A stretch of 64,000 bases of DNA from Nemertoderma westbladi (taxonomy: Eukaryota; Animalia; Xenacoelomorpha), in the NCBI GenBank assembly GCA_032718475.1, contig JAUCBJ010005005.1:4528-68527 (forward strand), given 5' to 3'. Below, in pieces: positions 8,878 to 52,889 of this stretch. Below the pieces are notes generated by a model that was not told where the DNA came from, made no database searches, and was given only the letters and a program-made list of their open reading frames with translations. How positions within the stretch are numbered: the stretch's first letter is position 1; each line of letters begins with the position of its first letter. The translations under genes were made by a program, and so were the position numbers.

Positions 8878-8887
8878 GTAACTAAAA
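8878..8887 (+). other. Element D non-tRNA primer-binding site GTAACTAAAA
   Basis: Abuts the 5' LTR, lacks TGG, exact complement of LTR segment TTTTAGTTAC at 8704-8713. Confidence 0.75.
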
Positions 8888-8938
8888 CCAACCGCTGCCC
8901 TAGCTAGCCAAACCATCAGCCACCAATTACCAAAGGAG

Positions 8939-12740: not shown

Positions 12741-12779
12741 TTAGAATTAATGAAAATAATTAAATAATAGAGTAGGTAG

Positions 12780-15009: not shown

Positions 15010-15539
15010 TGTTAGCTTATCCAATTCCGCTAACACCCCATAAAGTTATAAGCCGATAAGCAATATTGGGAGCCACGAGATTGGATAATTAACCAACTCG
15101 TGCCATCCCAATAAGAGTGGGAAGCAAGCACACAATAAAGGGTCAGGGGCCAAACCCCTAACCCAGAGAGAACAGATGGAGTGAACGGGAACACTCCATG
15201 TGGTGCCAACAAGGGTATCAACCAATCAGAGGGGGGCAAGGCATCGATTAGGTAGTAATTAGGCCAACCGTGCAATATAACCAGTAACCCAATATCAGTA
15301 ATTCAGTTATCTCAGTGCAGTAGTGCTAGCATAGGTTAATTAGTTTAGATAGGGGAGCACGGGACTTTTAGTTACCGTATCCCGCCTTCCATATACTATA
15401 CAATATATCTATATCTTATACCTTTATTATTATACACCGAACTTCAGAACTCATTTTACTTTCATTCACTCTTTATACACGGCGGGGACGCGTGAACTAA
15501 ATACCGGATAAATCGGGATCCCTCCTGGATCCCGTCACA
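15010..15539 (+). repeat. Element D 3' LTR
   Basis: Direct repeat of 8348-8877. Confidence 0.95.
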
Positions 15540-19189: not shown

Positions 19190-20623
19190 TTACGTTATGG
19201 AGTCCCTAGATATTTGTTGGATTAGGGAGGTGGTCGTGGGAAGAGTATCTTGCCTTCCATAGTTTCCGGACAGTTTTCGGTCTCTTTCCAGTAAATATAA
19301 ACGACCAGCTGGGCGATTGAGTGGTTGTGTTACTTTCTCCGCTCCCTTGGCCTGTCTAATCTTAGTCGGGTTAAGGTGGGGAGGCCATTCATCTTCTTTA
19401 CTTAGGAAGTCGGGTTCACCTAACCAGTCTGGAATATCTGTCAGTTCTTGAGGAGTTGCTCCTCTGGAGGCGATGTCGGCTAGATTGATCGTCTCGGGGC
19501 AATGTCTCCATTGATCTACATTGGAGTTGATGTCGTCATTATCTGAGGAGTATGGTGTTCCCTCAGTTGGGTCGTCAACTTCACTGCTCTCCACTTCCCG
19601 TTCACTTAATTGATATACCTGTTCTTTTGGTAATCTTTCCATAAGAGTTCTACGAGAAGGGCCAGTAAAGTACCAACCTACTCTAGTTCTTCCCGCATAG
19701 ACTTGTAGTGGTTGCGGTTGAGCAGGCCGTTTCTCCAATGTCTCGAGCGCCTCATGCGCATTTTTGACCGATGAGTATTTGGACTCCAGGGTAATCGGTG
19801 TTGAATCTAGGTATTTCAAGCTGCTGGGTGAAATCGTCCTCATCCCAGTTATAAGGTTCCACTTGGCTGGTCGCGAAGTTCTTTATCGCTACCATATTTA
19901 CTGACCTTATGCTGTGTTCTCCTAGTTCATCCTGGGGGGTGGACAACGCGCCTACATAATAATCCGCTATTACGGTAGATTTCCAAACCTGCATAATTCC
20001 TGACATGTTTAGCTTAGTTCGGAACTTGGGTTGTCCAGCAAAGATGTCTTCGGCTAGTTCTTTGTCGATGAATGTTCCTGTGCTACCGGAGTCAAGGAGG
20101 GCGTTCACTATATAACTCCTTGTACGTCTGTGGACCCTTAACTGTACTACAGGAAATTCTCGGATTCCTACATATTGGAAGTTGGTGCTTTCCAAGATGG
20201 TTGTCTGTCAGAAGTAGTTAGGGGGAGCTCGCTATCGGTGTCCTTTTCATACGTAAGTGCTCGATACACTGCGGTATTTGTCAGGTAACAGGATTCGTTT
20301 TCGTCGGAGAATTCGTCCGTATAGAATCCTTCCATCTCAGAATATTGGTCAGTGTCGTTCACATCACTGAATTGGACATGTAGTTCGGACTCACTTACCT
20401 GACTCGGGCTGTTTCGTTCGAATTCCGTGTGCAACAAGATATGATGTTTTGCGCCGCACTTTGCACACCTTGCGTCGGAGTAACAGGTTCGCCGTTGGTG
20501 TCCTCGTCTGAGGCAATTATAACACAACCGCTTATCCCACATGACTTCACGTCTATCCTTTAATGATTTCTTTAGGAATTTATCACACATATTCAAACGG
20601 TGGCCCCGTCGCACAGCACACAT
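19190..20623 (-). pseudogene. Element B gag zinc knuckles and aspartic protease, frameshifted; pol ends before RT
   Basis: CYNCLRRGHQRRTC, CAKCGAKHHILLH, ALLDSGSTGTFI and RTRVGWYFTGP lie in three frames. Confidence 0.85.
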
Positions 20624-23600: not shown

Positions 23601-23799
23601 GCTTGACCTGAGCTCTAGTGCCTATGATAGACCTACGGTGTTGGACCAGCCTAGGTTCTGATATTACTACTGGGGGAATGATCTTTCTTACAGTAGGAGG
23701 TGAGTTGAACTTCGGTCTAACACGTTCCACACTCCTGTCTAGGTCACATATGGTTGTATCTAGGAGACTGTCTGACAGATTTTGCTTTGTGTCAGACAT
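20593..23799 (-). CDS. gag: Element B Gag (Bel/Pao, DUF1759-like capsid region)
   Basis: 1068 aa; KFNGDEMKWLPF...EKLRFLIECLEG signature; leads into the Cys/His knuckles. Confidence 0.85.
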   Translation of the reverse strand: MSDTKQNLSDSLLDTTICDLDRSVERVRPKFNSPPTVRKIIPPVVISEPRLVQHRRSIIGTRAQVKRDQEAAEQQQPASQELISQWPDSSSSEDTVELTPERGAKMTDAVYSDPLLILPAAVLTRLLIAVEEHQIDWARSKRSTKDSYAGYTREELKSIVESQWNFPGPGLPLNLSEAAWEDIHRMGVTKETIDPAVWKRSAAGYVQGFFSSMERLEKQLFQQPQGPQEQGQLLYRVRERILRIRLILSAFEEASKRRQDTSLQVAVKTWFQRVSLQVQGTTQWKAQLDERSTHGESTDATFSQVESEATAEKPHKRDAIDIYLSDYQRFVGDEELRRRLEGLSPNSEGAQRVLDAIDVDRLAANQAKFNESICIAKVQEEQVKKKRIEDRKIAAAAAAVAEAERKAAVAEAAAEAKIAVAEAERRASEETTQLELENLQEKQDNFSKQLTASNMQMMNRSTPKRQGYTSSEEGDTTDPEGGGNRSRLSRRRRTSHRHKLPDLPPAVRRQLTNTDLGSTEPTDQIIKIERLPTIVDEPEIIRPVLEITPSVIETPVLPEPTFKFPLHSTKLSVPRGTAPETVSVLDSERNLKDISPVVPRLPATTLADPASAVDWVDERRRGMDILLGEMKENRVRSSQQVRELEGTVQQLKGTVKESRLELQEVQQSIALERDKLVNLQKGISPPSVTICQPVRSEVSHAQGVEPTRIYTASEVETPIVNPIKGNYRPVDSDIPYRPDHNPRNLYTDNSILNNTMAQESFTRQMARTEARQAVKVGEIVKFNGDEMKWLPFNEYYKDNIQNSVLSNGEKLRFLIECLEGSPKLMALKFIGHPDGLRQVWDTLNIRYGNRNNIAGYLYAKLVAPQKFISSGIIEFSDEIQEICRQLDWLGKSHEYQSAMVIRAVASTLPKGGVGTRWDKKMIYMMEQQQRDPTMADLMSFLDGEVKLQLIKQSREKTPENKVSEKPVSRRKVTPVCYIDDGESQTSQGEDSGKDTERSYYVNKMPKEQVSKLKSRTNDRREQVRKTPPTSPKRIQVRKSEERTSVHNVIQNKVSNIKPKCVLCDGATV

Positions 23800-23929
23800 G
23801 TTGGTTTGTACAGTTGAATGCCTACTACTATATTACAGTTTAAGCAAGTTTAGTAATTCAGTATCAACTGTTAGCCTAGTAATTAATTACCGATACTGCT
23901 ACTTAGTGTAGCGTGATATATGTATAATA

Positions 23930-25834: not shown

Positions 25835-25846
25835 TATATCCGTTAT
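25835..25846 (-). other. Element B non-tRNA primer-binding site ATAACGGATATA
   Basis: Abuts the 5' LTR; exact complement of the sense LTR segment at 26572-26583 (5583-5594 in the 3' LTR). Confidence 0.8.
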
Positions 25847-27014
25847 TGTTCGCGCTTTCAGACCTTTAGCAGTTTAACCTGCCAAATTTGGATGTCTTTT
25901 AAATGATAGATAGTCTTTAGCCTATGACAAGTATTTGATACACTACATTAGCCGAATCCAGTCCACGCGCGATCATTCACCCGCTGGATATACCCGGGAG
26001 ACTGGATTCGGAAGCCCAACCGTATTGCGGGGTAGGCCTACTGTATTATTCGACTGATCGTAATATATATAATCTCTGACAAATATTATTCACTTTAGGG
26101 AAATATTAACAGTTCCTTTAGGACGTGGCGCTTTAAATATATAAACAGAGTTATGACTTAAACTAGACACAACGGGATGGCTATAGATTCACGTATATGG
26201 CGCATTCTTTAGGAGATGCTTCGTTATCAATCACAATCATACACAATACTGCACAATGCTGCACACTAATCTGCCGACCTTCACTAATTTTAGTCACATA
26301 TAAGGAGAACAACAGACAATACGTGTAGGGCCTATAAAATAGCATTAGATTCACTTCAAACCACTTAATGTAAGTCGCAATCGTTATATGTATCCGGTCT
26401 CTCTAACCTTTAGTATATCAAGAAGATTGGGGTGTCTGATTGTTTATCAGTATTCCAAATATAATATTCCATCAACAAATATAATGAATAACCGACAGTA
26501 AATAGCAGTACGAAACACGGATTGAGTTAAGTAAGTTGTGTTGTGGTATGAGTTCAGTGAGGTATGTTGTGATAACGGATATACGTTCTATAATTAAGCC
26601 TACTAATGTTGAGCTAAAGACTGAAACACGGAGGTTCCACGCCGGTGTTGTAGGCTGTGGACAAAATCACATACTGACTCACTTCACTAGTTTCTATATA
26701 CAATCTCCAACACAGAGGCAAAAAACGCTCTGATTGGTCGACCGAACAAAGAGAGAACAAAGAACAAAGAGATGTTCCACGTAGCAATATCAGCTGTTAG
26801 CCGTCGTCATGGTAGCTACACTGTTTCAAGAGGATCCGGCGTATTGCGTCATAGAATTGCTAATCATGTCCGCTAAAGTACACATACAGAAGAAATGGCT
26901 TTTATGTCCTCTAAAACAACAATACAGTAAGGACACGGCCTTTTATGCCTGTTAAACCAACTACAGAGTACTTTACGGGGAAAATAACCGGCTAATTACG
27001 CAAAAGCCTTTACA
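25847..27014 (-). repeat. Element B 5' LTR (1168 bp)
   Basis: Repeat of 4858-6026; CCAAT, TATATAGAA and TCAGT on the minus strand. Confidence 0.95.
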
Positions 27015-30809: not shown

Positions 30810-30813
30810 TTAA

Positions 30814-31489: not shown

Positions 31490-31494
31490 GACCA

Positions 31495-33387
31495 TATTGG
31501 AAGAGACAGCAACAATACCTGCAATATCCTACTGTAAAGTTTGTGAATCAAATCATAAATCCGACCTTCTCACCAAAACAGTAAACTCTAAGTAAGCGAA
31601 TATATTGCAGTATCGATCTCTTATAACCGGTGAGGCAGAAAACAGTCTACGAGCAGACAAACTTCGATGAAACAAAATCCCGCGCAGCGAATCCTAAAAT
31701 CAGGCTGACTCACTGACGGACTAAGGGGCTCGTATACTTTGCCGCGGTGTGATTTATATGGTTGGGCGAAAGAGACGCTAGCTAGGTACAGAGGCAGAGA
31801 TTTGGAGATGTCTAACTAGCGGGCAAAGCACAGTACGGACAAAAGTTAATTTTATATATTTTGAGGTGTAAATAATTTCTAACGCGCGTGTTAATTCTGA
31901 ACGGTCAAAAGCAGTTTTGCTCCTTCACATATATAATTACTGGGTACGGTGTGCATTTTACGAATATTCTAATTTTGTAACTCGTAGGTCCAATACTCAC
32001 GAATGATAAGGTTCCTTCCCCTCTTGCGTATTTCCAGGACTCAAATTCAGGCATAAGGTTAATGCTACGCCCAGAATTCGGCAATTTTAGGTACCAGGTC
32101 CCTGATACTAAGAAGAGATGTGTTAGTTTACTACTGTAGGCGTACAGTTACTAATAGCTATCCTGGCTCCTATCTAGAATTTTAGTCACCCAGGTAGTCC
32201 GGGTAACTTCCTATTAGGGCGTTGGCGGGGACACGGTAGATGTTAGTATCCCTAATAGCCTCAATTTATTTGCGCCTAGCTGTAAACTGCCCTACCGCCT
32301 GAACGGTACAATCCCAATTCAGGTGAAAACACAGCAACCCCTCTAGCCTACAAGTTCTAATGCAATGGACACCGTTGTACTACAAATAGTCGCACACGCA
32401 CCTGCACTTAGCAAGAGTTAGGCGTACAGTTTGCTGCACCCTACCAATTTGTATGCTTCGTACCAGTGTGCCTACGTCCTATCTGCGTACTAGTATCTGC
32501 CTGCTCTTTCCCTCTCCCCCCGTAGGAATGTGAAGGTCTACTGTGGGTTTTCCTGAATCAAGACAGTACAGTCCCTAAGATGTAATTTTAGGCTCACAGC
32601 GTGTCACTACTTCTACCTTTTGATCTTTTGGTCTTACACTTAGGTAGCAAGGCGTCGAACGCTGTCTAACCTTTCAGGCGATGGGTGAATAACTCAAGAT
32701 GGTATTGCGGGTTGTCTCTTGTCTACATTCCCCCGATGTTCCCGTTCATTGCTGCGGCCCGATCTCTAGCTGGCCATCCTGTCCCTTAGCTGGGTTCACC
32801 GTAGTGAATCATGGTAAAACAGATAGAAAAAAGCAGATTAGCGATAATTCTGACTTTATTACAGAAGATATAATTATAATACAATGTAATCTGAAATAAA
32901 CTAAGCACGACAGAATTAAAGTGATGTGTGTGATAGATATTGAATGAGATAACTAATGAACAAATCGCACCTTTATATACTAAATTTGTGCCGCAATCAA
33001 TCGAGAAAATTCTCGATTGTTCTATAGGTTCTAACAGGTTTTTAAAGATAGCTATTGGTCCAGCTAATATATAACTTGCACGACATTGGTTACAATCAAA
33101 TAACTACAGTCTCATTGGTACAGACAAATGCAATTAATTTGTAGCGGTTAATTTAAATGAGTTGAAATTCTGCACAAAAATAATTCGCACTTACTAGGAT
33201 TCGAACTCAATACCTACTACACATATAATTTCCAACGCTCTACCGACTGAGCTACTGAACCACTTGACCAATAGGCGTATAAATAGAAATAGCAATACAA
33301 ATGAGGACTCAAAGCAATCTTTACAAAGTTAATTCGAATAAAATAAAATTTTGAAAATCCACGGCATTTAGGGAATATAATTCTATA
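31495..33387 (-). repeat. Element A 3' LTR (1893 bp, TA...TA termini)
   Basis: About 4 substitutions and one 20-bp indel versus the 5' LTR (by eye). Confidence 0.95.
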
Positions 33388-34121: not shown

Positions 34122-36929
34122 TTATCGCTTAGTGGATCGAGCCCTGCCGCGTCCTCGAAAACTGCGCACAGGTGACTTTGCTCGCGATATGGGACTCGTG
34201 GGGCGAGTCACTGGTTTCGTTTGGACGTTGAGAGACGGTGCGACCATTTCCTCGCAAATTCGTCTATTTGGCATCCCAAAACTTCGACCGATTCCTCGTG
34301 ACCGATCAGTTGTCACTACAGTTGGTAGAACGTCTGGGAACGCGCGAGAAGCGGACGACGCAGACCCAAGAGTAGCTTGCGCCCCCTGTTGATCAGCTGG
34401 TGTATGTCCCGATCCTCCTACTGGTTCTCTAGGAAGCGATACCGTATCCCGAGTAATTCGAATGGTCGGCTCAACTCCCTTGCGTTCTTCTACATTAATA
34501 ATTTTCTTTAATTGTTGGCCCACTTTCTGGACCCGTATGATCCTACCCTGTCCGTCCTCCCGAGGGTGACGTGCAGACGGCGCAACCGGAGTGGCTGGTA
34601 TATTTGTCGCCTCTAGGACCTCTTCTTCCTCGAATACGCTCGCTCGTATACGTTTATGGTAAAACGCGGCTCGGTACGCCCATGCGACGGTTAACCAAGC
34701 TCCTTTGTTCCGCTTTTCAGTTCGGAAACGATCGAATTCACCATACGTAATGCGATTAACGACTTTCTGAAAATTCCACGTGTTTTTGTTATCCGGGTGA
34801 ATCTGTAGTAGATACTCGCGCACCACTCGGAATCCGCTGTCGTGGGGCAAAATATCGACAACCTCGATAAGTTCGTCATATTGGGGCATAGCGGAGATGT
34901 ATCCTTCCGACATCATCGTTTGGGGATTTACCGCCCAAAATCCAAGATGCGCTCTCATCGGAAACCGTCTTCTTTGTGCTGATACATGTTCGTCGGCTAA
35001 ATCTTCCCACTCATCAAATAACTTCCTCACGAGTTTTACAGATTCGTGTTCATAAGGTATATCTCTTAGTTGGCATTCAGATGCTCGATGTCCTTTTATA
35101 TTGCAGTAAGTACATTGAGCCATAAATCTCCAGCAAGTATAAAAGGTATGAGACCCTTGATCCCCACACCATCCACAGATTAGCTGAGTCGTAGTAATGT
35201 GCTTTCCACTGCACTTTGTCATATGATGTCCAGCGACGCCACATTTACTACACATCGTATTGGCAGGGTACCACACTCGTTCGTATATAAGATCTCCAAT
35301 CGGTCGAGCGCTTCCTCCCACACTATAATCGTAATCATCTGGGTCTATGGGTTGGTAGGTTTCTGAAGGTTGTATACAAACTATAGCATCTGTTGCTTCA
35401 AGTTGTCGAATCTCCGTCTGAGATTTCTTCGGGAGGTTCCTTTCTATCTCAAGAAGTTCCTCTAAAGGATCATCGGCGATCGTAGTAGTTACTTCGAAAT
35501 CATCACCAAGGTGACCGATAGGCGCGCGCGTCTGCCGTGATTCTTCCGTAATCTCCACGATACGTTCTCCTTCATAGGGTAACAATGTAAACATAGATGG
35601 TCTTTCGATAAGAGATCCCGCACAGCGAAGATACACGTCTCGAAATATACTAAATCCTGCTCGAGTAAAGGCATTACACTGAGCGTCGGAGTTGTAGAAG
35701 GGTTCAAGGAATCGTCTAAACACGTCGGTACGAATTCTCCCTTCCATGTAGAACGTATGATCTTCTCCGAGACAAAGTGGATGTCTTTTGAGAGTCCGAG
35801 ACACAATGTCGGCGATTAGGCAAACATTCACTGACAACTCTATTGCTAAATAATATTGTAGGACCGCTCTTGGAGGTGACGTAATAGCCCAATACACGCA
35901 TCCTCTCCATTTAAGCTGTGATTCAAACTCACTCATATCTGGAGTATCACCTTCTCCATAAGTTTCAATATACTTGTTTCTCTTATTTTCCTTATAATCC
36001 CAATTGAATAACAGGTAGGAAATGTATCCAGTTCCAGTCTTCTGAGTATTATACTCACGAAAATATCCCTGTTCTATAGACCACAAAATAAGAGGTCGAG
36101 TGTCGACGTAAGGTGTCGGTAGTCGGTCATCGCTGTCCGTCATGCCGGCGAAGTCGCTAATTAAATCCTCCCTTACTCCTGATCCAATCTTTACAACAGT
36201 TTTATCTAAAATCATGTTTCTTACCATCTTCGGTAGCATTCTAGCGTCAATATTACAAGCTTGGTCCATCTTCTTTACTATGTCGGTGATAAGATGGTGT
36301 CGCTTTGTATTCGCTGGAGGTATCGGCATTCGTTTGTCGCTCCTCTGTCTACTGAAAACGTGCAGGACTCCGTCCGCCGCTCTAATTTGTATAGTCTTAG
36401 AAGTCAAACTCTTCTGATGACTGCCGCCCTCGTTATCGTAAAACATGTAACCGTTTTCCTGAAACGATCTAAATGTCCTATTCCATTCATCCAACAATTC
36501 TTCCGAAGGTTGCCAAATCTTCTCTATGTCCTTATCATCTTCGAAACGAATAACCTTACCTCGCCAATCTGCGGCAATATCTGTATCCGACTCGAAGGTT
36601 CCGGTTCCAATCCATAAACGAATCGTCTTGGTTAAATATCCTTTCAAATTACTCGGAGCTATATCGGCACCAGCTCTATCCAGTTCCTTGAAGTCTTGGA
36701 TATGAGGTGGGACGTTGTACACGACCTTTTGAGTAATATGTCTACGTAAATCATATATCTTGCTCATATCGCTGAAAACAACTGCAGGAAGAAACTCCAA
36801 GTTCGAAATGATTTCTGGATGATCCACGATGGGTATTTCGTACGTCGTATCCTGTCGGACTGGTATACTAATAGGGAAATTGAGTGTCGTACTCAATGGT
36901 TTCGTAGTTGATGTACTATACGGTTGCAT
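34122..36929 (-). CDS. Element A ORF3: DEDDy/WRN-like 3'-5' exonuclease domain plus three CCHC zinc knuckles
   Basis: 935-aa intact ORF; FYDNEGG, VVKIGSGVREDL, YVDTRPL, YLAIE; CSKCGVAGHHMTKC, CGWCGDQGSHTFYTC, CTYCNIKGHRASEC. Confidence 0.75.
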   Translation of the reverse strand: MQPYSTSTTKPLSTTLNFPISIPVRQDTTYEIPIVDHPEIISNLEFLPAVVFSDMSKIYDLRRHITQKVVYNVPPHIQDFKELDRAGADIAPSNLKGYLTKTIRLWIGTGTFESDTDIAADWRGKVIRFEDDKDIEKIWQPSEELLDEWNRTFRSFQENGYMFYDNEGGSHQKSLTSKTIQIRAADGVLHVFSRQRSDKRMPIPPANTKRHHLITDIVKKMDQACNIDARMLPKMVRNMILDKTVVKIGSGVREDLISDFAGMTDSDDRLPTPYVDTRPLILWSIEQGYFREYNTQKTGTGYISYLLFNWDYKENKRNKYIETYGEGDTPDMSEFESQLKWRGCVYWAITSPPRAVLQYYLAIELSVNVCLIADIVSRTLKRHPLCLGEDHTFYMEGRIRTDVFRRFLEPFYNSDAQCNAFTRAGFSIFRDVYLRCAGSLIERPSMFTLLPYEGERIVEITEESRQTRAPIGHLGDDFEVTTTIADDPLEELLEIERNLPKKSQTEIRQLEATDAIVCIQPSETYQPIDPDDYDYSVGGSARPIGDLIYERVWYPANTMCSKCGVAGHHMTKCSGKHITTTQLICGWCGDQGSHTFYTCWRFMAQCTYCNIKGHRASECQLRDIPYEHESVKLVRKLFDEWEDLADEHVSAQRRRFPMRAHLGFWAVNPQTMMSEGYISAMPQYDELIEVVDILPHDSGFRVVREYLLQIHPDNKNTWNFQKVVNRITYGEFDRFRTEKRNKGAWLTVAWAYRAAFYHKRIRASVFEEEEVLEATNIPATPVAPSARHPREDGQGRIIRVQKVGQQLKKIINVEERKGVEPTIRITRDTVSLPREPVGGSGHTPADQQGAQATLGSASSASRAFPDVLPTVVTTDRSRGIGRSFGMPNRRICEEMVAPSLNVQTKPVTRPTSPISRAKSPVRSFRGRGRARSTKR

Positions 36930-37847
36930 TTATCTTGTCCTCTCCGGGGATGCAATCTGTAGTCTCTGAATAACGTTTTGAGCAAAGTTTATGCTCTCGA
37001 AAACTTCCGGTGTCATCTCCTTAGCTGGAGTTTGATCGTGTGACGTCCAATGGTAAGGTAGGCTCGCGAGTCTTCCGCCCCATTCTTCCATCTCACCTTT
37101 CTCGAAAGCCTTGTAGGCTCTGTATAGGCTAAGAGCTTCTTTCTTTTCGCGGGTTGACTGATTTGCCTCGTCCAGCGTAAGTTCAAATACATCGGGTTCA
37201 ACAACCTTAGGTGGGTAAATGACAGTTTCTCCCGCCTTTGGTCCGGTCATAGCAAATGAATGATATGGATTCGATAAAGGATACCCTCCTTCCTGGTAGC
37301 GTAGTTGTTGATGGTTCGAACACCTCGCCAATATCGGTTCGGGATTTTCCTTATTCAAATGCATCGGAATCGCATTTCGTTGTTCGCGCATACAAGAACC
37401 GCATTGATAATAAAGTTTATAAACTGAAAATGCTTCCTTGGTTTCTCTATCGTCCCCTCGAGTTCGTCTGTAAAGATGCATTCCATCAAATTCATCTCGT
37501 ACCGCGGGCATAGGTTCGTGCGCCTTCAGGTATTGCATGGTATGATACAAACGACTAATTTCAGTATCGGGGTCTTCGCTAATGTCTCCCGTATCACACA
37601 AAGCGTCGTACGGATAAAGTTCGTTGAAGGTTTGGCGCAAACTTTCGATTCTTTCGTTTAATGCGTTTTGCCTTCTCTTTAATACGTTCGAGTCATATTT
37701 AGTTCTCGCGAGTTTCGCTGTACTTTCCGATAATTCCTTTATACCGAATATAGTATAGTCCTTGGCTCCAAATCTTTCGCATGGCGCTGCTGCCTCCTCT
37801 TGGATATCATATCCCCATCTCGGCTCTCCTTGTATCCCTTTCTCCAT
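36930..37847 (-). CDS. Element A ORF2: unknown protein with putative Zn site (CxxC...CxxH)
   Basis: 305 aa; homologous by eye to the N-terminus of the B/C accessory ORF; its stop abuts the ORF3 ATG in frame. Confidence 0.7.
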   Translation of the reverse strand: MEKGIQGEPRWGYDIQEEAAAPCERFGAKDYTIFGIKELSESTAKLARTKYDSNVLKRRQNALNERIESLRQTFNELYPYDALCDTGDISEDPDTEISRLYHTMQYLKAHEPMPAVRDEFDGMHLYRRTRGDDRETKEAFSVYKLYYQCGSCMREQRNAIPMHLNKENPEPILARCSNHQQLRYQEGGYPLSNPYHSFAMTGPKAGETVIYPPKVVEPDVFELTLDEANQSTREKKEALSLYRAYKAFEKGEMEEWGGRLASLPYHWTSHDQTPAKEMTPEVFESINFAQNVIQRLQIASPERTR

Positions 37848-38506
37848 AATTAGGGGTGTAGTTACATAATCATTACTACTAGAGGGAATACAACAGAGTT
37901 TGTAGTTAGTTGTGAGGAGACGTGAGAGTTTCGTCTGCCCTTTGGGCTCGACAACGCTCTAACCTCCTACCCATAGCCTAAGATCTAGGGTTTCTTTAAT
38001 GACACGCTGCTTCTTATCTAAAATTTTTGCCGAAATAAAAACGAATTTGGGCTAAACTGGCCGTGAGTCTAAAATACTCACCTTTTGATCCCAAACTATT
38101 ATCAGAAAATAAGCAATCAAGAATTAGTAATAAATATAGGGGAGTCTATTTTGACGTAACTTATTGAAACAAGACCGTGTAAAATTTAATTAAAATTTTT
38201 AAGAAAGGCTCGCAAGTCTTCCTCTCTTGTTTCTCTAATTTTAAGTTCCACCCGACTGTACCCTGAAATCTATTCACTGGAGAAAATTTTAAAATTTTTT
38301 CAAATCCAAATGGATTGTCTAAAATTTCGAAAATGTCTCAATATTGTGAGTTCCAAGTAGAATTCCATTTCTTATACCTACAAATCCCGCTCCTATGTGA
38401 CACATAAGGGTACTACCCTCAATGTTCACATATAAAGACAATGGAATTCTACCGCTGTCCTTACTACGGTGTACAGGTACGTGGAAATCTATTTGTAAAC
38501 TCCTAA

Positions 38507-41500
38507 TTATTTACTAGTATTAGGTGGAGATTTGTAGTCTCCAGATTCGTTACGAGTCTCTTCAAGAAGTACGAGACGTTGAGTCGGTCTGTCTACTGTA
38601 CGACCGTCAATTGTCCGTACCGTCACAGTTCTTGTCACTCCATCCATAGATGGATGTGTGGCTAAAATTACACCTGTTATCCAGAAGCGTCTTTTTAGAT
38701 TCACTTCTGCCAACAGCACGTGATCTCCCGGCTTTAATGCGCGGGTGTTATTATACCAAGTTGTTCTGGCAGAAATAGAGGGCAAATAATGGTTTTGCCA
38801 TATTTCCCAGAATTTGTTAGCTAGTAGTTGCGTGATTTTCCACGCTTTTCTACCGTAGCTGTCGCTTTCTATTGGAATAGAAATAGGTGTCAAAGTTGTC
38901 GGTGCCTGCATAAGCAGGTGTGCCGGTGTCAAAGCGAACTGAGATTGTTTGTCATCGGGTACTAATACTATTGGTCTAGTATTTAGTATTGCCTCGATTT
39001 CAACAAACAGTGTTGTCAGTTGGTCGTCTGTCAATATGTGGTTTACTGGAATGACTTTTGCCATTGCCGTCTTTATAGATCTAATCAATCTCTCCCAGAC
39101 TCCGCCTCTCCAAGGACTATCTGGAGGATTGAACTTCCAAACAATCTTGTGAGGTTGCAGTTCGTTCGAGATTTGATCATGATCTAATTTCTTAAAGGCT
39201 CTAGCAATCTCATTTCGAGCACCAACAAAGTTTGTCCCTTGGTCTGAGTACAAGCATTTTACTAGTCCGCGTCTAGCGATAAATCGCCGCAAGGCTAGTA
39301 TAAACGCGTTGGTGGAAAGATCCATCACACGTTCAATGTGAACTGCCCTACTGGACATACATGTGAAAATCAGTCCCCAGCGTTTTACTAGTATACGTCC
39401 ACGTTTCGTATGTATGGGACCAAAGCAATCAATTCCAGTCTCTGTAAAAGGTGGTCTGAATGCTTGAAGTCGTGCTTGTGGTAGTTCACTCATTTCTTGG
39501 GTACCTATTCTAGAATGTACCTTTTTACAAATAATACACGTACGTGTCACTGAACTTAACGCTTTACTGGGTCTAATTAATACAAATCTTGTACGTAAGT
39601 AGGAAAGACAGTGGTGTCTTCCAGCGTGTTTTAGATGTAAATGTGCATCCAGTATCATTGCACGTTGTAGTTCGTGATGTTGCGGTATTATTATTGGGTA
39701 CCTAAAGTTTGTGTTAAAGTCAATGTTTTGAAGCCGAGATTTATGACAAATTAAGTCATTGTAAATAATCGGACTCCAACTCAGTATTGGTGACGACTTG
39801 ATTGGTTGACCTTGATTTATGGACGTGAATTCGCGCGCGAAATATCGCAGTTGGTAATGGCGAATTAATTTAATCTCACACCTCTCAATCTCAGTCAATG
39901 TAAGTCGACGTGTAAAGTCACGTTTGCCTTTAACGTATTGTACAAAACGTACAATCCACGCTAATTTTCGGCAAGCGCTTGTCCAAGAGTCTGTTAAGTT
40001 TACAATCCGGTCGACGTGAGTATTTGTGACGTCATCAGGTAAGTCAATGGAGATTTTGGAAGGTTTTGAATTACTAGAAGGGCCCACGGGTCCGCCGGTA
40101 AGTATTCCCTTGTTGACTGTTGATCCTTCCGGGTCTACAAGTAATTTGTCCTTCTTCGTCTTCTTACCTTGATTGTCGGTACTTTGTAAGTCGATCGTTA
40201 ATGGTGGTTTGAACTCTATGGGGTCAGCAGGTTTCGGTAAACTTAATTTGCTGCCAACATTAATCCCAGGTTTCACCATAGGTTGCAAGTTCGGTATGTC
40301 TCTTGAGCGCAAAGTAACACCTGTATTTACATTAGCGTAGGTACTACCCACATCTGTAATACATGAGGTTTCACCGTGCTTATGGTTGCTCAAGTGTGTC
40401 AAAATTGGTAGTTTGTCAATACAAGGCCGCTCCAATAGGGAAACTGCGGCTTCACTATTTGTCAGTACGTTACTAGTGTCTAGTCGACTGTCTAGTAATG
40501 TGTCTGGCGATACGTCTGGTAACGTATCTGGTTGTTTGTCAATAGAAGGCCGCTCCAACAGAGAAACTGCGGCTTTACTGTTTGTCAATGCGTTACTAAT
40601 GTCTGGTAGAATGTCTGATTGACCGTCTAGTAACGTGTCTGGTTGACCGTCTGGTAACGTGTCTGGTTGACCGTCTGGCGATATGTCTGGTGTAGAAAGG
40701 CTCGCAAGTCTTCCTCTCTTGACCTTTGAAGTTATCGCTTTCCATTTCGCCTTCGGTTTTTTCTTGAGTTTTGCCGTCGTCGTCTTTTTCTTTGCCTTCC
40801 CCTTTTTTGGTTTCTTGATTTCGGCGTCCTTAGGGATGGTGTTAGACTTGTTGTCGTATAACGGTGGCCAATCTTGCGTCGATTTCTGCAAGAATTGGGG
40901 TCCGTGTTGCCAAAATTCTTTGTTCTCCGGTTTACAGAATTCCTCAGACATCATTCCTCGCGACGCAATATCAGCTGGGTTTTGTGGTCCGGGACAATGT
41001 CGCCAATCCTCTTTTATTGAACGGTCTAGAATTTCTGCGCGACGGTTAGCTACGAATGTCTTGAATTCAAGTGTGTCGTTGTTTATGTAAAATAAAACCA
41101 ACGTCGCGTCAGTCCAATAAAATATCTGTAAACTTGACTGTAGTTCTGTCTGTATAAGGTTTACGATGGTGGTTGATAGTGTTGCGGCTTGTAGCTCAGC
41201 TCGTGGTGTCGTCATATACTTAGTAGGCATTGTTTTTGCCTTAGAAGTAATGAGCGAAACATCGAATGCTTCTGAGTCTACTTGTCTGCGCAAGTACGCT
41301 GCCACACCAAAACCGTTGTCACTGGCGTCAGAAAAACAGTGTAGTTCCAAGTTGTCAGGAAATGTACTTTGTAATGGAAAGTAAACTCTGGGTATGGAAT
41401 ACTCCTCTAGCGAAGATAATTCCGCCTCCCAGGTCTTCCATAAGTCCACTTGGTCTGATGAGATCGGCTCGTCCCATGTTAGTCCATCCTTCCAAATACT

Positions 41501-44500
41501 GCGCATATAAATGCGGGCTTGCAGTATTACTGGACTGATGAATCCTAACGGATCGAACAATCGGCTCAATTTTGACAAGCATGATCTCTTTGTCAGTGTG
41601 TTCTCTTGACTGTCCAGTCTCACCTTCACTCGGAAGTTGTCCGTGTTTGGGTCCCAAAAGAGCCCCAACACCTTGGTCGTCGGTAGTGGTTCGAACTCTA
41701 GGTCTATGTCACCACCTCCATGCTCAGTCGTTCCGAATGAGTCTACTAATTCGGCACTGTTTGAGGCGAATTTGGTGAGGTTGAAACCTCCGCCCGCCAA
41801 GCAGTCCCGTAATTGATGTGCTACTGTTGTAGCACGTTCTACTGTGTCGCAACTCTGTAATCCGTCGTCGACGTAAAAGTCACGTTCCACAATCCTAATT
41901 ATCTCTGGGTCATATAGGTGTTTCTGATCTCTAGCGGCTTGTTTTAGGGCGTACATCGTGCAGTTTGGGCTGTCCCTGGCACCGAAAACGCGAACTTGCA
42001 TTTGGTAAGTCGTCGGTGGTAGACTTAAGTCTCCTTCCGGGTACCAGAGGAACCGCAAACTGTCTCTGTCTCGCTCTAACGCTCTCACTTGGTGAAACAT
42101 CGCTTCAACGTCGCAAGTAAAAGCTACTTGACGCTGACGGAAGCGCATAATCACCCCCATAAGATAATTATTCATGTTTGGTCCATCCATCAACTCGCTA
42201 TTGAGGGACATTCCCTCAAACAGAGCCGCACAGTCGTTGACTACGCGTACTTTGTCTGGTTTGTCGGGGTGTCTCACGTAGTGATGTGGCAAGTAATACG
42301 TCTGGTCAGTCACTCGCTCCGGGTTAGTCATCCGGATAGCGTATCCCTTGGTCAAATACGTCTCCATCTGAGTGTTGTACTGCAGATGGGCTTTCTCGTC
42401 CTTTAATAGACGTTGTCGGATTGAGTGTAGACGTCTTAACGCTAGTGGGTAGTTGTTTATAAGTTTAGGACTTTGGCTACGCCATAACATCCCCACCTCG
42501 TAATGTCCGTCCTCCGTCTGTCGGATAGTATCTTCCATGATCTTCAGAGATTGTTTCTCCTGTTCCGACATACAAAGTTCGTAGCTACCAGGTTCAGCTG
42601 TATCTTGTTCTAACCACCTGATAGTCTTCTCCGTTAATTCCTTGTCCAGTGCAGCTTGTTCCATTTGATGATTTCTCAACGCGTCATCATCGATCTCGAC
42701 GGGCATTGTTGATGTCGTTGGGGTAGGTAGACTCGCAAGCCTTCCGGCGTTATCATCTGTCGTCGATGGAATCTCTAGCTGACTCGTCTTCTCCCCAAGT
42801 TCTAAACTCCGCTGGTGGATTAGCTGCTCCTTGTGACTTATCATACTAGTCACACGTCTGTCACGTTTTGTCGACTGTAGTGTAGTATGGTTCACGTCGT
42901 GTGAGAAGGAATGAATTGAATTTGTAGTTAATAAACTACATGTACTTTGTACATCGTCTTCCTCGTCACTTACGTCTAGTGTGCGCACAGGCGCTCGAGT
43001 ATACCACCCTATCGGCGTTCTGCAGCCGTATGCGTTTCCCGCTACGACTGCCGATGGTCTGGTTTCCCACCCCTGATGTAGGTTGAATTGGTCTGTCCCG
43101 ATCAGCATGGCTACCGATCGATAATTGACAGGACATTCAGGTACACCAAGGTGTCTGAAATACTTACGGTCCTCCAAGGATTGTTCTGGGACCGGACCTA
43201 GTAGGTTACTAAAGTCTTTTGTGGCCGCAAAGGTCAAATCCTTGAAGGGTAACAAAGACCTCTCCCTCTCGCTGTGTTGCGATTTCGGAAGAAGAGAGTC
43301 TAAGTTTAACTTGACTCGTGTCACTGGTATTGCACGCTGTCCGTGCATACTACTTACGGTATAACTGACGCGCTTACCTTGTCTGAGATCCGTCACGACG
43401 TCAGCTATCTTTTCATCCACGTAGCTGTGAGATGAGGCTGAATCTAGAATCGCGTAGATTCTCTTACTCCCCTTTGTGCCAGTAATCTTAATTGGAATTA
43501 CACTGAATCCCTTCAGTTGGTCAGTAGTCAGAAGCGCGATCGATGGCTGTTCATCTCCATCCGAATATACGTCGTCGTCTTCTGACTCTTCGTCCGACGA
43601 TCCGGATTGTTCTGAGAAGCAATCCTCAATATGGGTCACGAAGGTCGGAGTCGTTTTCGATTCTCGTTTTCTGTAGGCCGCATCACATCTCGCTGCTGCT
43701 TCCGGGTGTTCCCTGGCGAAGCGTTTTGTCGGCGTGTGGCTGTCCGTGTGGAGCAGACCGTCGTGGTTGCGTCCACAGGATGGACAAGTGTCGGTATTTG
43801 GGCAATCTTTACGGACGTGTCCGTGTCGCGTACACCGCCAACAAGAGTCCAATGGCCGTATTTGCAGCCGTCGTTCTTCCGAGTTCAACTCGCGAAACTG
43901 TCGACAACCTCGCAACTTGTGACCGATATACCGCTTGCCTAAATGCTCGCAGTATTGGCAGCCGCTGAAGTCGGTACTGAGTTGTTGTCTCGTCTGTTTT
44001 GTCCCAATGGGCGCAGATACCCTACTACCGTCCGAGAATTGTCGTGATTCCGTCGGTGTGGCGTAAGTGGCCGTCTTGGTGGATGTTGTCTGAGGTTTTT
44101 GTCGGTTGGAGGATGGCAAGGTGATCCCTTCTGCTACGATGTGCTGGTCAGTGTAGTTGGATCGAGTTTCTACAACTGCTTCCCTGGATATCAAAAGATA
44201 CACATCCTCTAATTTTAAGAATCCACCCCGCTCTTCTCGCTGGTATTCGATCTTTCTCCACTCCCGACGAAGTCGATGGTGGAGTCGTCCTATGATTTTT
44301 AATAGGACTGTAGGGGTATTCCCGTAGTCAAGTTGTCCAATGGATCTTAAAGTAGTGATAGCGTTCTTTATCTCGTCGGCCAGTTTTAATAAGTCGACGG
44401 GTTTAGTGATAGCCCCTCCCTTACAGAGTTCCTCTATTACTGACCTGGCCATACTGACTGTACCTCCGTATATCGAAGTTAAACGATCGTACGCTAGTTC

Positions 44501-46378
44501 GAAGGCGTCCGGTACACCAACGAAGGTCTCTGCCAAACGTTTAGGTTCTCCTGACAACGTTTGAAGCAGGTAATTAAACTTCTCCCGTGATGTAAAGGCG
44601 CACACGGCGATCTGAGATTCGATATAGTCTACGAATGTGTGCCAGTGTTTTGAACTACCGGAAAACTTCGGTGGTTGTTGTACCGGCAATCCTTGCCTGG
44701 CTGCGAATTTCGCTATCTCCTCGGCAACGTTCAGAGTTTCGCGTCCTTGGTTGGTAACCTGGTTGGTGTTCTCCCTTCTTGGCGCTTTTCCCTGATACGA
44801 TGTATGTTTTGAAGGTACCGGTCTTTGTGGTTCCTTCGGGTGTCTATTGTGTTCGAATTCGGAATTTCTCGAACTGTCGGTGTAACCTTCCTCCAGACGC
44901 TCCTCGATCTGAGCCAACTTGTTAACAACTGGTCGCAGGATGTCGGCGAACTGTTGTGCACTGATTGCGTCCGTTGGTTGTAACGCCTTCTGTGTTGGTG
45001 TATTCTGTGGAGGATTGTCTACAAAGGAGTTATCTGAACGCTCGCGTTTATATTCATCGGCCGCCCCTGTTCTAAATACCTCGCGTTTCGGGTAATCCGA
45101 TTCGCTCGAAGTACTACTATCATCTGGATATGGTGGTCGACGTGCTCGCGTCCGTTGCGTCGTACGAATTCTAACATTTCGCTTTGGAACATCGTCCACT
45201 GATCTCCGTTGTTCGGTAGGCTCACAAGTCTTCCTCGAAGTCGTAGATTGCGATGTAAACTGATTGAACGGTCGCGTATCCACTGTTCTCCATTGTTCGG
45301 TAGGCTCACAAGTCTTCCTCGAAGTCGTAGATTGCGATGTAAACTGATTGAACGGTCGCGTATCCACTGTTCTCCGTTGTTCGGTAGGCTCACAAGTCTT
45401 CCTCGAAGTCGTAGATTGCGATGTAAATTGAACCAGTGGTCGAGTAACAGCGTTTGAATCCAAAGGCCTTGTTGGCCTAAACGTCATTGGGTAAGCATAG
45501 TGTGTAACAGGTTTTGGCGTCAGAGGTGGACTCACCTGTTTTGTCGTCAGTAGTGCAGGTCCGACTAATAAACTACTACGATCTGTAATCGGCGGGTTAC
45601 TTACCTTTGGAATAGGCGACGACGTTGCTCTTGGCGGTGTAAACTTGTCCGGAATAATAAACCTGTGTTCCGTCGCACCATGGATAGGAGAAATATCACT
45701 ACTACCCGCAATCGAAACAGGTTTCTTAGTTGTAACTGGTGCGAACATAGGGGTTACTTGAGGGAATCTTTGACATAAGTCCTTTACTAATTGTCGTTCC
45801 CGTCCAGGTGCTCCTATCGAACCTTCCTTCATTCGTTCCTGGATTTGGCGATGCCTTACCTCTATCTGGTCCAAATCATGTCCGTCACGAGATCTCATCG
45901 ATCGATCACGGGCTAGAAGATCCAGATTTTCCTTGGTTTCGGCTAATTCTCTCGCCCTTTTCTCAAGTTCGAAACGAAGTTTAACTTCCTTTTCTCGTTG
46001 TTCCGTTTGTTGTTGTTGCGCCTCGAACTCTGCTTGTCGTATCGCTTGTTGGGCTTTTATTTGCCGTGTCTTCATCTCGACTCTGGCTTCTGAAACTAAC
46101 CTTTTTCTTTCTAACTCTGCCGCTGCCGTTTGTCGCTCTAACTCGGCTGCCGCCGTTTGTCGCTCTAACTCGGCCGCTGCCGCTGCCGCTGCCGTTTGTC
46201 GCTCTAACTCGGCTGTTGCCGTTCGTTGCGCTAACTCGGCCGCTGCCGCTTGTTGGGCAATGTCCAACTCTAACCTTTCCATTTCGGCCGCTTCGAGTTC
46301 GGCTTGTTCCTGCAGATGAGAGATTCTCGCTACATTCGCAACACGTATTTTCTCTTCCTCTACCGCTGTTTGTATCAT
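38507..46378 (-). CDS. gag-pol: Element A Gag-Pol polyprotein, main part: gag, knuckles, PR, RT, RNase H, integrase
   Basis: 2623 aa; ILDSASS (PR), YYLPHH and FYVDDG (RT), FSDAS/PRAEL/WTD/NPADIASRG (Pao RNase H), HHCC plus GIDCFGP/SDQGTNF/GGVWERLI (IN). Confidence 0.97.
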   Translation of the reverse strand: MIQTAVEEEKIRVANVARISHLQEQAELEAAEMERLELDIAQQAAAAELAQRTATAELERQTAAAAAAAELERQTAAAELERQTAAAELERKRLVSEARVEMKTRQIKAQQAIRQAEFEAQQQQTEQREKEVKLRFELEKRARELAETKENLDLLARDRSMRSRDGHDLDQIEVRHRQIQERMKEGSIGAPGRERQLVKDLCQRFPQVTPMFAPVTTKKPVSIAGSSDISPIHGATEHRFIIPDKFTPPRATSSPIPKVSNPPITDRSSLLVGPALLTTKQVSPPLTPKPVTHYAYPMTFRPTRPLDSNAVTRPLVQFTSQSTTSRKTCEPTEQRRTVDTRPFNQFTSQSTTSRKTCEPTEQWRTVDTRPFNQFTSQSTTSRKTCEPTEQRRSVDDVPKRNVRIRTTQRTRARRPPYPDDSSTSSESDYPKREVFRTGAADEYKRERSDNSFVDNPPQNTPTQKALQPTDAISAQQFADILRPVVNKLAQIEERLEEGYTDSSRNSEFEHNRHPKEPQRPVPSKHTSYQGKAPRRENTNQVTNQGRETLNVAEEIAKFAARQGLPVQQPPKFSGSSKHWHTFVDYIESQIAVCAFTSREKFNYLLQTLSGEPKRLAETFVGVPDAFELAYDRLTSIYGGTVSMARSVIEELCKGGAITKPVDLLKLADEIKNAITTLRSIGQLDYGNTPTVLLKIIGRLHHRLRREWRKIEYQREERGGFLKLEDVYLLISREAVVETRSNYTDQHIVAEGITLPSSNRQKPQTTSTKTATYATPTESRQFSDGSRVSAPIGTKQTRQQLSTDFSGCQYCEHLGKRYIGHKLRGCRQFRELNSEERRLQIRPLDSCWRCTRHGHVRKDCPNTDTCPSCGRNHDGLLHTDSHTPTKRFAREHPEAAARCDAAYRKRESKTTPTFVTHIEDCFSEQSGSSDEESEDDDVYSDGDEQPSIALLTTDQLKGFSVIPIKITGTKGSKRIYAILDSASSHSYVDEKIADVVTDLRQGKRVSYTVSSMHGQRAIPVTRVKLNLDSLLPKSQHSERERSLLPFKDLTFAATKDFSNLLGPVPEQSLEDRKYFRHLGVPECPVNYRSVAMLIGTDQFNLHQGWETRPSAVVAGNAYGCRTPIGWYTRAPVRTLDVSDEEDDVQSTCSLLTTNSIHSFSHDVNHTTLQSTKRDRRVTSMISHKEQLIHQRSLELGEKTSQLEIPSTTDDNAGRLASLPTPTTSTMPVEIDDDALRNHQMEQAALDKELTEKTIRWLEQDTAEPGSYELCMSEQEKQSLKIMEDTIRQTEDGHYEVGMLWRSQSPKLINNYPLALRRLHSIRQRLLKDEKAHLQYNTQMETYLTKGYAIRMTNPERVTDQTYYLPHHYVRHPDKPDKVRVVNDCAALFEGMSLNSELMDGPNMNNYLMGVIMRFRQRQVAFTCDVEAMFHQVRALERDRDSLRFLWYPEGDLSLPPTTYQMQVRVFGARDSPNCTMYALKQAARDQKHLYDPEIIRIVERDFYVDDGLQSCDTVERATTVAHQLRDCLAGGGFNLTKFASNSAELVDSFGTTEHGGGDIDLEFEPLPTTKVLGLFWDPNTDNFRVKVRLDSQENTLTKRSCLSKLSRLFDPLGFISPVILQARIYMRSIWKDGLTWDEPISSDQVDLWKTWEAELSSLEEYSIPRVYFPLQSTFPDNLELHCFSDASDNGFGVAAYLRRQVDSEAFDVSLITSKAKTMPTKYMTTPRAELQAATLSTTIVNLIQTELQSSLQIFYWTDATLVLFYINNDTLEFKTFVANRRAEILDRSIKEDWRHCPGPQNPADIASRGMMSEEFCKPENKEFWQHGPQFLQKSTQDWPPLYDNKSNTIPKDAEIKKPKKGKAKKKTTTAKLKKKPKAKWKAITSKVKRGRLASLSTPDISPDGQPDTLPDGQPDTLLDGQSDILPDISNALTNSKAAVSLLERPSIDKQPDTLPDVSPDTLLDSRLDTSNVLTNSEAAVSLLERPCIDKLPILTHLSNHKHGETSCITDVGSTYANVNTGVTLRSRDIPNLQPMVKPGINVGSKLSLPKPADPIEFKPPLTIDLQSTDNQGKKTKKDKLLVDPEGSTVNKGILTGGPVGPSSNSKPSKISIDLPDDVTNTHVDRIVNLTDSWTSACRKLAWIVRFVQYVKGKRDFTRRLTLTEIERCEIKLIRHYQLRYFAREFTSINQGQPIKSSPILSWSPIIYNDLICHKSRLQNIDFNTNFRYPIIIPQHHELQRAMILDAHLHLKHAGRHHCLSYLRTRFVLIRPSKALSSVTRTCIICKKVHSRIGTQEMSELPQARLQAFRPPFTETGIDCFGPIHTKRGRILVKRWGLIFTCMSSRAVHIERVMDLSTNAFILALRRFIARRGLVKCLYSDQGTNFVGARNEIARAFKKLDHDQISNELQPHKIVWKFNPPDSPWRGGVWERLIRSIKTAMAKVIPVNHILTDDQLTTLFVEIEAILNTRPIVLVPDDKQSQFALTPAHLLMQAPTTLTPISIPIESDSYGRKAWKITQLLANKFWEIWQNHYLPSISARTTWYNNTRALKPGDHVLLAEVNLKRRFWITGVILATHPSMDGVTRTVTVRTIDGRTVDRPTQRLVLLEETRNESGDYKSPPNTSK
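45200..45430. repeat. 84-bp in-frame tandem repeat (about 3 copies) in A gag
   Basis: QFTSQSTTSRKTCEPTEQ repeated three times. Confidence 0.9.
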
Positions 46379-50960: not shown

Positions 50961-50971
50961 CACATTCCTAC
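50961..50971 (-). other. Element A non-tRNA primer-binding site GTAGGAATGTG
   Basis: Abuts the 5' LTR; exact complement of sense LTR segment CACATTCCTAC at 51999-52009 (32522-32532 in the 3' LTR). Confidence 0.8.
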
Positions 50972-52435
50972 TATTGGAAGAGACAGCAACAATACCTGCA
51001 ATATCCTACTGTAAAGTTTGTGAATCAAATCATAAATCCGACCTTCTCACCAAAACAGTAAACTCTAAGTAAGCGAATATATTGCAGTATCGATCTCTTA
51101 TAACCGGTGAGGCAGAAAACAGTCTACGAGCAGACAAACTTCGATGAAACAAAATCCCGCGCAGCGAATCCTAAAATCAGGCTGACTCACTGACGGACTA
51201 AGGGGCTCGTATACTTTGCCGCGGTGTGATTTATATGGTTGGGCGAAAGAGACGCTAGCTAGGTACAGAGGCAGAGATTTGGAGATGTCTAACTAGCGGG
51301 CAAAGCACAGTACGGACAAAAGTTAATTTTATATATTTTGAGGTGTAAATAATTTCTAACGCGCGTGTTAATTCTGAACGGTCAAAAGCAGTTTTGCTCC
51401 TTCACATATATAATTACTGGGTACGGTGTGCATTTTACGAATATTCTAATTTTGTAACTCGTAGGTCCAATACTCACGAATGATAAGGTTCCTTTCCCTC
51501 TTGCGTATTTCCAGGACTCAAATTCAGGCATAAGGTTAATGCTACGCCCAGAATTCGGCAATTTTAGGTACCAGGTCCCTGATACTAAGAAGAGATGTGT
51601 TAGTTTACTACTGTAGGCGTACAGTTACTAATAGCTATCCTGGCTCCTATCTAGAATTTTAGTCACCCAGGTAGTCCGGGTAACTTCCTATTAGGGCGTT
51701 GGCGGGGACACGGTAGATGTTAGTATCCCTAATAGCCTCAATTTATTTGCGCCTAGCTGTAAACTGCCCTACCGCCTGAACGGTACAATCCCAATTCAGG
51801 TGAAAACACAGCAACCCCTCTAGCCTACAAGTTCTAATGCAATGGACACCGTTGTACTACAAATAGTCGCACACGCACCTGCACTTAGCAAGAGTTAGGC
51901 GTACAGTTTGCTGCACCCTACCAATTTGTATGCTTCGTACCGGTGTGCCTACGTCCTATCTGCGTACTAGTATCTGCCTGCTCTTTCCCTCTCCCCCCGT
52001 AGGAATGTGAAGGTCTACTGTGGGTTTTCCTGAATCAAGACAGTACAGTCCCTAAGATGTAATTTTAGGCTCACAGCGTGTCACTACTTCTACCTTTTGA
52101 TCTTTTGGTCTTACACTTAGGTAGCAAGGCGTCGAACGCTGTCTAACCTTTCAGGCGATGGGCGAATAACTCAAGATGGTATTGCGGGTTGTCTCTTGTC
52201 TACATTCCCCCGATGTTCCCGTTCATTGCTGCGGCCCGATCTCTAGCTGGCCATCCTGTCCCTTAGCTGGGTTCACCGTAGTGAATCATGGTAAAACAGA
52301 TAGCTAAACTGGCTAAAACAGATAAAAAAGCAGATTAGCGATAATTCTGACTTTATTACAGAAGATATAATTATAATACAATGTAATCTGAAATAAACTA
52401 AGCACGACAGAATTAAAGTGATGTGTGTGATAGAT

Positions 52436-52620
52436 ATTGAATGAGATAACTAATGAACAAATCGCACCTTTATATACTAAATTTGTGCCGCAATCAATCG
52501 AGAAAATTCTCGATTGTTCTATAGGTTCTAACAGGTTTTTAAAGATAGCTATTGGTCCAGCTAATATATAACTTGCACGACATTGGTTACAATCAAATAA
52601 CTACAGTCTCATTGGTACAG
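52436..52620 (-). promoter_or_regulatory. Putative Pol II promoter of the A LTR
   Basis: Three CCAAT boxes (~52551, 52582, 52611), TATATAAAG at ~52468-52476, TCATT initiator-like at ~52441. Confidence 0.6.
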
Positions 52621-52671
52621 ACAAATGCAATTAATTTGTAGCGGTTAATTTAAATGAGTTGAAATTCTGCA

Positions 52672-52760
52672 CAAAAATAATTCGCACTTACTAGGATTCG
52701 AACTCAATACCTACTACACATATAATTACCAACGCTCTACCGACTGAGCTACTGAACCAC
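52672..52760 (-). promoter_or_regulatory. tRNA-like Pol III cassette in A U3 (also ~33175-33263)
   Basis: TAGCTCAGTCGGTAGAGC (A box), GAGTTCGAATCC (B box), TTTTT. Confidence 0.65.
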
Positions 52761-52889
52761 TTGACCAATAGGCGTATAAATAGAAATAGCAATACAAATG
52801 AGGACTCAAAGCAATCTTTACAAAGTTAATTCGAATAAAATAAAATTTTGAAAATCCACGGCATTTAGGGAATATAATTCTATAGACCA

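Follow-up and report, generated by a model that had tools for sequence, protein, structure and literature searches.

Primer binding sites complementary to their own LTRs suggest tRNA-independent self-priming in Bel/Pao retrotransposons

The window analyzed here, meaning the whole 64-kb stretch of DNA, contains three LTR pairs, which delimit elements A (31495-52884, reverse strand, 21.4 kb), B (4858-27014, reverse strand), and D (8348-15539, forward strand, nested in B). Each element is flanked by a 5-bp target duplication, namely, GACCA (A), ATCTC (B), and TTAAA (D), and these duplications, together with the divergence between LTR copies, make the LTR ends of all three secure. A fourth, kin element is 5' truncated and has no 5' LTR, so that a self-match could not be scored for it. 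The insertions are nested over positions 4655-53488: B is inserted in the 3' LTR of the fourth element, D lies in B between the two accessory ORFs of the latter, and A is inserted in the accessory region of the fourth element, a region that also harbors an unrelated 2-kb insert (28831-30810). Neither tRNA genes nor Rfam matches were found in the 64-kb window.

The 5' LTR of A (50972..52884, reverse strand) measures 1913 bp, and the 3' LTR (31495..33387, reverse strand) measures 1893 bp; the two copies are 4 substitutions and one 20-nt indel apart, and the GACCA duplication occupies 31490-31494 and 52885-52889. Both ends of both LTRs read TA, not TG...CA, despite the perfect 5-bp duplication and the near identity of the LTRs; in one relative, L015, the LTR ends are TG...TA. 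A 4.6-kb leader, with a 258-codon open frame that has no Pfam match (49401-50177, reverse strand), lies upstream of the gag-pol ORF (38507..46378, reverse strand, 2623 amino acids), which encodes, in order, DUF1759, protease, RT (YVDD), Peptidase_A17/RNase H, integrase, and DUF5641. The RT, RNase H, and integrase motifs are intact. The 120 nearest proteins listed for A are Bel/Pao polyproteins, with 39 to 44% identity over RT-RNase H, and the hosts named among them are molluscs, cnidarians, echinoderms, a brachiopod, and a hemichordate. On the basis of its predicted protein domains and their order, A is firmly assigned to Bel/Pao (Belpaoviridae).

Two accessory ORFs lie behind pol and are homologous between A (34122-37958) and B (6645-8349 and 15535-17592) at about 30% identity; the fourth element keeps accessory pieces resembling those of B (27861-31493 and 52885-53622). 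In A, the first (36930..37958, reverse strand) is homologous to B 16471-17592, and the second (34122..36929, reverse strand, 935 amino acids) carries zinc knuckles and an exonuclease-like region, the latter being a lead only, with an atlas score of 0.87, under the reliable range. For this second ORF, a word search returned no homologue, HMMER returned 3 weak matches, and there was no relative among solved structures. The shared accessory ORFs identify A and B as kin; their LTRs do not align.

Element B has a 1168-bp 5' LTR with TG...CA ends (25847..27014, reverse strand) and a 3' LTR at 4858..6026 (reverse strand), where the ATCTC duplication is found, and its LTR copies are 5 substitutions apart. 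Its gag ORF (20593..23832, reverse strand) contains DUF1759, and only protease-region and RNase H remnants are left downstream, the RT having been lost. The DUF1759 gag and the RNase H remnant give fair grounds for placing B in Bel/Pao. The leader of B contains tandem units of 289 nt (25254-25820) and 127 nt (23948-24311). For the fourth element, a PBS predicted from the LTR position homologous to the B segment was sought in loose contig ends, but these ends were mixtures (agreement, 0.5).

Element D has a 530-bp 5' LTR (8348..8877, forward strand) and a 3' LTR (15010..15539, forward strand) located behind a G-rich polypurine tract and followed by the TTAAA duplication; the copies are 7 substitutions apart. 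It encodes two overlapping gag-like ORFs (8882..12740, forward strand) without a Pfam match and has no pol. The gag end shows a Bel/Pao-like zinc knuckle spacing (pairwise E of 0.036 to the A knuckles), and this spacing and the 5-bp duplication hint that D might also belong to Bel/Pao. Its 3' region contains long AG-rich tandem arrays (12800-14400).

In all three elements with a 5' LTR, the PBS is the exact reverse complement of a segment of the element's own LTR. The match spans 11 nt in A (PBS GTAGGAATGTG, 50961..50971; candidate self-primer CACATTCCTAC, 51999..52009, LTR positions 876-886; both reverse strand), 12 nt in B (PBS ATAACGGATATA, 25835..25846; candidate self-primer TATATCCGTTAT, 26572..26583, LTR positions 432-443; both reverse strand), and 10 nt in D (PBS GTAACTAAAA, 8878..8887; candidate self-primer TTTTAGTTAC, 8704..8713, LTR positions 357-366; both forward strand). 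Each match begins at offset 0, with zero gap to the 5' LTR, does not extend into the LTR, and has the right polarity for extension into U5. The PBS of A lacks TGG, and the first TGG behind the 5' LTR is found only after 145 nt in A, 254 nt in B, and 329 nt in D, confirming the sequence-only reading, which had described a missing TGG PBS and an abutting exact complement of the LTR. Its further claim that the pairing is kept while the sequence differs also stands, as the three PBSs are different and each matches the other two LTRs over 3 to 6 nt only. Every segment has three occurrences in the window, one in each LTR and one at the PBS, and the variants listed for contigs of the A family include none in the PBS or the segment. 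The single run guessed to be RNA, which speaks in neither direction, covers neither of these two sites. Comparison of the two kin elements, A and B, indicates at the sequence level that PBS and segment have been altered together since their divergence.

The chance of such a match, calculated from LTR composition, is 3.7e-4 (A), 2.3e-4 (B), and 5.1e-4 (D), giving a product of 4e-11. Equally long matches were obtained from 6/3000 (A), 0/3000 (B), and 4/3000 (D) internal start points and from 1/2000, 3/2000, and 4/2000 resampled LTRs, respectively. The 1e-4 to 5e-4 per element proposed earlier is thus in line with composition (2.3e-4 to 5.1e-4) but slightly low compared to the empirical value, which reaches up to about 2e-3 per element. 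The joint chance for the three elements ranges from 4e-11 to about 6e-9, a figure to be read with the kinship of A and B, and the presence of RT in A only, in mind.

According to the available parts of two sources (PMC7175516, PMC4600332), the primer of Tf1 consists of the first 11 bases of its own RNA, cut by RNase H. As in the Tf1/Tf2 (Schizosaccharomyces pombe), Tj1, Tf1/sushi, and Tcn1 groups of Ty3/gypsy treated there, A, B, and D have no tRNA PBS, about 11 PBS bases complement their own 5' LTR, and RNase H is intact in the autonomous element, here A. All three elements display the Tf1-type arrangement, in which 10 or more bases adjoining the 5' LTR complement the own LTR and a tRNA PBS is missing. 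Unlike in Tf1, the segment of A, B, and D is predicted to lie 60 to 440 nt behind the RNA start, and relatives appear to build the segment by splicing. Membership in the Tf1/sushi group implies a Ty3/gypsy chromovirus polyprotein, whereas the domains and homologues of A are those of Bel/Pao. We infer by analogy that priming in A, B, and D would work like that of Tf1, yet in elements outside the Tf1/sushi group.

Neumann et al. predicted self-priming for Tcn1 and for the plant Ty1/copia TAR lineage (PMC6317226, available in part). The match used there for TAR elements (Houba, Osr-1), at least 10 bp located 0 to 5 bp behind the 5' LTR, is also found in A, B, and D; TAR elements differ in being plant Ty1/copia, and the available part of that source describes no splice-built primer. 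The previous statement that self-priming is known from Ty3/Gypsy is correct for Tf1 (PMC7175516, in part) but too narrow, TAR of Ty1/copia having been predicted earlier (PMC6317226, in part). Bel/Pao elements are indeed described as tRNA primed, as had been stated: the ICTV account of Belpaoviridae describes a PBS of 18 nt that fits tRNA-Arg or tRNA-Gly, with LTRs measuring 0.2 to 1.2 kb and genomes 4.2 to 10 kb long, and calls replication poorly understood (PMC8742986). A agrees with this account in gag-pol domain content and order, LTRs, and PPT but departs from it by the lack of a tRNA PBS, a 1.9-kb TA...TA LTR, two accessory ORFs, and a length of 21.4 kb (PMC8742986). The LTRs, PPT, and short target duplication typical of Bel/Pao are present, with 5-bp duplications in A, B, and D; the 18-nt tRNA PBS is absent from all three, and the family was assigned by protein. 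A term search of three Bel/Pao surveys (PMC3118150, PMC554778, PMC6238403) returned no mention of PBS or tRNA, and the available parts of PMC6934838, PMC3601003, PMC13524379, and PMC3286476 added nothing on Bel/Pao priming. No report of self-priming in Bel/Pao was found in the literature searched, most subscription journals, Repbase notes, and supplements aside.

A scan of metagenome contigs confirmed 572 Bel/Pao loci, of which the best 80 served as relatives. Among these 80 loci, 50 had no flanking repeat and 30 had one, with the right LTR end fixed in 13, only the left end in 11, and neither in 6; the right end of L026 was fixed via its sister, L034. Both contiguous and spliced PBS-LTR matches were scored, at offsets 0 to 4. 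Eleven of the 13 loci with a fixed right end lacked TGG, and all 11 showed a self-match of 10 to 15 nt, the pairing thus recurring with differing letters. In two of the 11, the match was contiguous, as in A, B, and D, while in nine, it required joining the two sides of a GT-AG junction within the LTR, with GTAAG (8/9) or GTACGT (1/9) as the donor and pyrimidine-rich YAG acceptors. Since a junction-spanning sequence exists only in RNA, a tRNA or a DNA duplication would be hard put to explain these matches. The two TGG loci had no self-match (best, 4 nt contiguous and 6 nt spliced). When PBS-LTR pairs were swapped as a control, 10 nt were reached in 10/238 pairs, 6 of these 10 being among three kin families that share one PBS.

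In the other 11 loci, those with only the left end fixed, 157 ACA ends were scanned blind. A match emerged in 7 loci, of which 3 were known families again and 4 were new, compared to 5/578 control positions; L050 had a TGG site like that of L067, and nothing was found in 3/11 loci. A wider scan added a match in L061, and neither scan gave a convincing self-match in L007 or L048. A 16-nt junction match in L007, located 1264 nt from the LTR start and with poor splice sites, was not counted. Predicted LTR introns of 71 to 426 nt split the primer segment in L004, L006, L010, L013, L014, L015, L019, L020, L023, L026, L060, and L061. A splice-junction primer was rejected for A, B, and D, the best spliced match of 8 nt being shorter than the unspliced ones of 11, 12, and 10 nt. 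Nor do we propose that an intron ends immediately before the unspliced segments: acceptor-like sites scored high only in D and L057 and were poor in A, L027, and L058. The viral contigs searched contained no relative. The self-match is not restricted to one small lineage but is spread over most readable relatives, and by sequence, A, B, and D seem to be unspliced representatives within a wide branch of self-matching elements rather than something that arose locally.

The predicted primer ended in AY in 13/14 families (background, 0.13) and in AY followed by C or G in 12/14 (background, 0.05), a pattern that was spotted post hoc; the way in which matches terminate also limits, in part, which base can come next. 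A common cutting or initiation preference would give such an AY end. In 10 of the 13 elements scanned, AATAAA or ATTAAA followed the segment at a distance of 12 to 251 nt; neither signal was present there in B, D, or L006. In A, the AATAAA at 51742..51747 (reverse strand), 251 nt downstream of the segment, would place R past the cut site, and another copy of this motif, 359 nt upstream of where the segment ends, would make R end too early, if used. This upstream AATAAA sits within a 144-nt LTR block (52304-52447) that contigs of two runs skip, that is missing from many contigs of the family, and whose depth is about tenfold below that of its flanks.

Promoter motifs place the predicted start upstream of the segment by about 60 nt in D, 90 nt in B (TATA-like motif only), and 435 nt in A. 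Motif scans found a predicted TATA box (52470..52476, reverse strand, LTR position 409) and initiator-like motifs (LTR positions 432 and 441) in A and CCAAT (LTR position 213), TATA (267), and the initiator TCAGTT (294) in D; the segment start of A also carries an initiator-like motif, seen in the sequence. A second helix, between the 20 nt upstream of the segment and the leader behind the PBS, ranked in the top 4% of windows in 6/13 elements (combined p, 3e-7). In D, one of these six, pairing of the leader with the 25 nt preceding the segment was better than for 453/453 control windows, while the ranks of 0.22 in A and 0.14 in B do not stand out. This upstream helix points to an RNA start ahead of the segment, in agreement with the TATA and initiator motifs. 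Whole-RNA folding gave the segment-PBS helix a probability of about 0.42 in A, about 0.44 in D, and 0 in B, and the D region folded no better than shuffles (z, -1.2). Priming of the Tf1 type reportedly needs a further stem with U5. A purine run after the A segment is able to pair with the U5 end, and pairing between the post-segment sequence and U5 ranked 0.02 in A and 0.36 to 0.93 in the other 12 elements scored.

A quick, unrooted RT-RNase H tree was built from A and 69 loci, L060 being omitted since it had no long segment; 49 rows were unlabelled, and A formed a long branch of unsure place. One branch parted 18 self-matching rows from 3 TGG rows representing 2 families (SH-aLRT, 96; 2/500 shuffles). 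An origin independent of Tf1 is likely, although the tree is unrooted and has no Tf1-group outgroup.

Taken together, these data make self-priming of minus-strand DNA synthesis with the element's own RNA the best explanation for A, B, and D, to which we assign a probability of roughly 75%. The 10 to 12 bases of the 5' LTR segment complement the PBS, and the transcript would fold back onto the latter. By analogy with Tf1, cleavage of the RNA would occur immediately 3' of the segment and would probably be carried out by the RNase H of the element; the resulting 3'-OH would be base paired to the first position of the PBS. Starting at the LTR end, RT would then copy 164 to 1027 nt, up to the cleavage point, which corresponds to extension into U5, and the cDNA would be transferred to the 3' LTR, whose RNA must reach past the segment. 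The primer would probably be a longer 5' RNA fragment and not the first 11 bases; the tRNA-independent self-priming proposed by the sequence-only reading is well supported by the comparison with relatives, but the Tf1 model would not be transferable as is, given predicted starts 60 to 435 nt upstream. B and D would have to borrow the enzymes of an intact relative, such as the family of A. The segment is predicted to be splice assembled in many relatives and to be ready-made in A, B, and D. We lean slightly toward the broader view that self-priming is the normal mode of a large marine-animal Bel/Pao branch, using an internal, AY-ending LTR segment on a longer 5' RNA, which in most families would be put together by the host spliceosome and in others, such as A, B, and D, would be present unspliced.

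The pairing might instead form a structural element closing the LTR-leader region, for packaging, dimerization, or a translation switch, with priming by another RNA or at another site. The extension of helices past the core in 6/13 elements and the predicted location of the segment away from the RNA 5' end would suit such a role, but the helix always starts at, or at most 4 nt from, the LTR boundary, the only place where a primer must end for the LTR end to come out right, no TGG lies within 145 nt in A, B, and D, and a stem has no need of a shared AY end; we consider this explanation unlikely. Less likely still is self-priming in trans or without RNase H, by a short separate LTR transcript that ended prematurely or was trimmed at its 3' end by a host or element exonuclease and annealed to the PBS of the full-length RNA. 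It would fit with an intramolecular helix that does not dominate in folding and with the accessory ORF of A and B with exonuclease-like features (atlas score of 0.87, under the reliable range). This ORF was found in none of the best 80 of 572 loci, which keep the signature, and we thus rejected accessory ORF 2 as a requirement for priming; in addition, no termination signal is located just upstream of the segment end, and Tf1 uses RNase H in cis (PMC7175516, in part).

Priming by a small RNA of the host (half of a tRNA, a tRNA fragment, or another species), as in some Ty1/copia lineages, with the LTR match being incidental, appears improbable. Half-tRNA priming does exist (PMC6317226, in part), but a host primer would predict few shared PBS types, whereas those of A, B, and D and about 13 more PBS types all differ and each matches its own LTR only, often across a splice junction. 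Finally, single matches of 10 to 11 nt arise by chance at up to 2 in 1000 positions, but the joint chance given above, the recurrence in relatives with different letters, and the 4 substitutions and one indel between the LTRs of A, which indicate that this family moved recently without a tRNA PBS, leave chance or a functionless relic of an inverted duplication with hardly any weight.

What appears new here is the self-priming signature in Bel/Pao, with another predicted primer position and, in relatives, a probable dependence on splicing; the Tf1-type mechanism is known. If self-priming is real, it would have arisen in all three LTR superfamilies, Bel/Pao being the third superfamily free of tRNA primers, and annotation tools relying on the PBS would miss such elements. 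The elements would be freed from the host tRNA supply and might also escape silencing by tRNA fragments, and the junction-type families would tie DNA synthesis to splicing, as the making of their primer would depend on it. If most readable marine relatives self-prime, the tRNA-primed description of ICTV would fail for a large part of Bel/Pao. For every family, self-priming specifies a single exact RNA 3' end and a single joint between RNA and cDNA.

Outside the elements, the window contains minisatellites with units of 30 nt (54149-54586), 12 nt (62704-63304), and 27 nt (1651-1849). What appears by eye to be a decayed LINE-type RT fragment occupies 59100-59620 and 61400-61630 and is split by an insert with 65-nt inverted ends (59610-59674 and 61334-61398).
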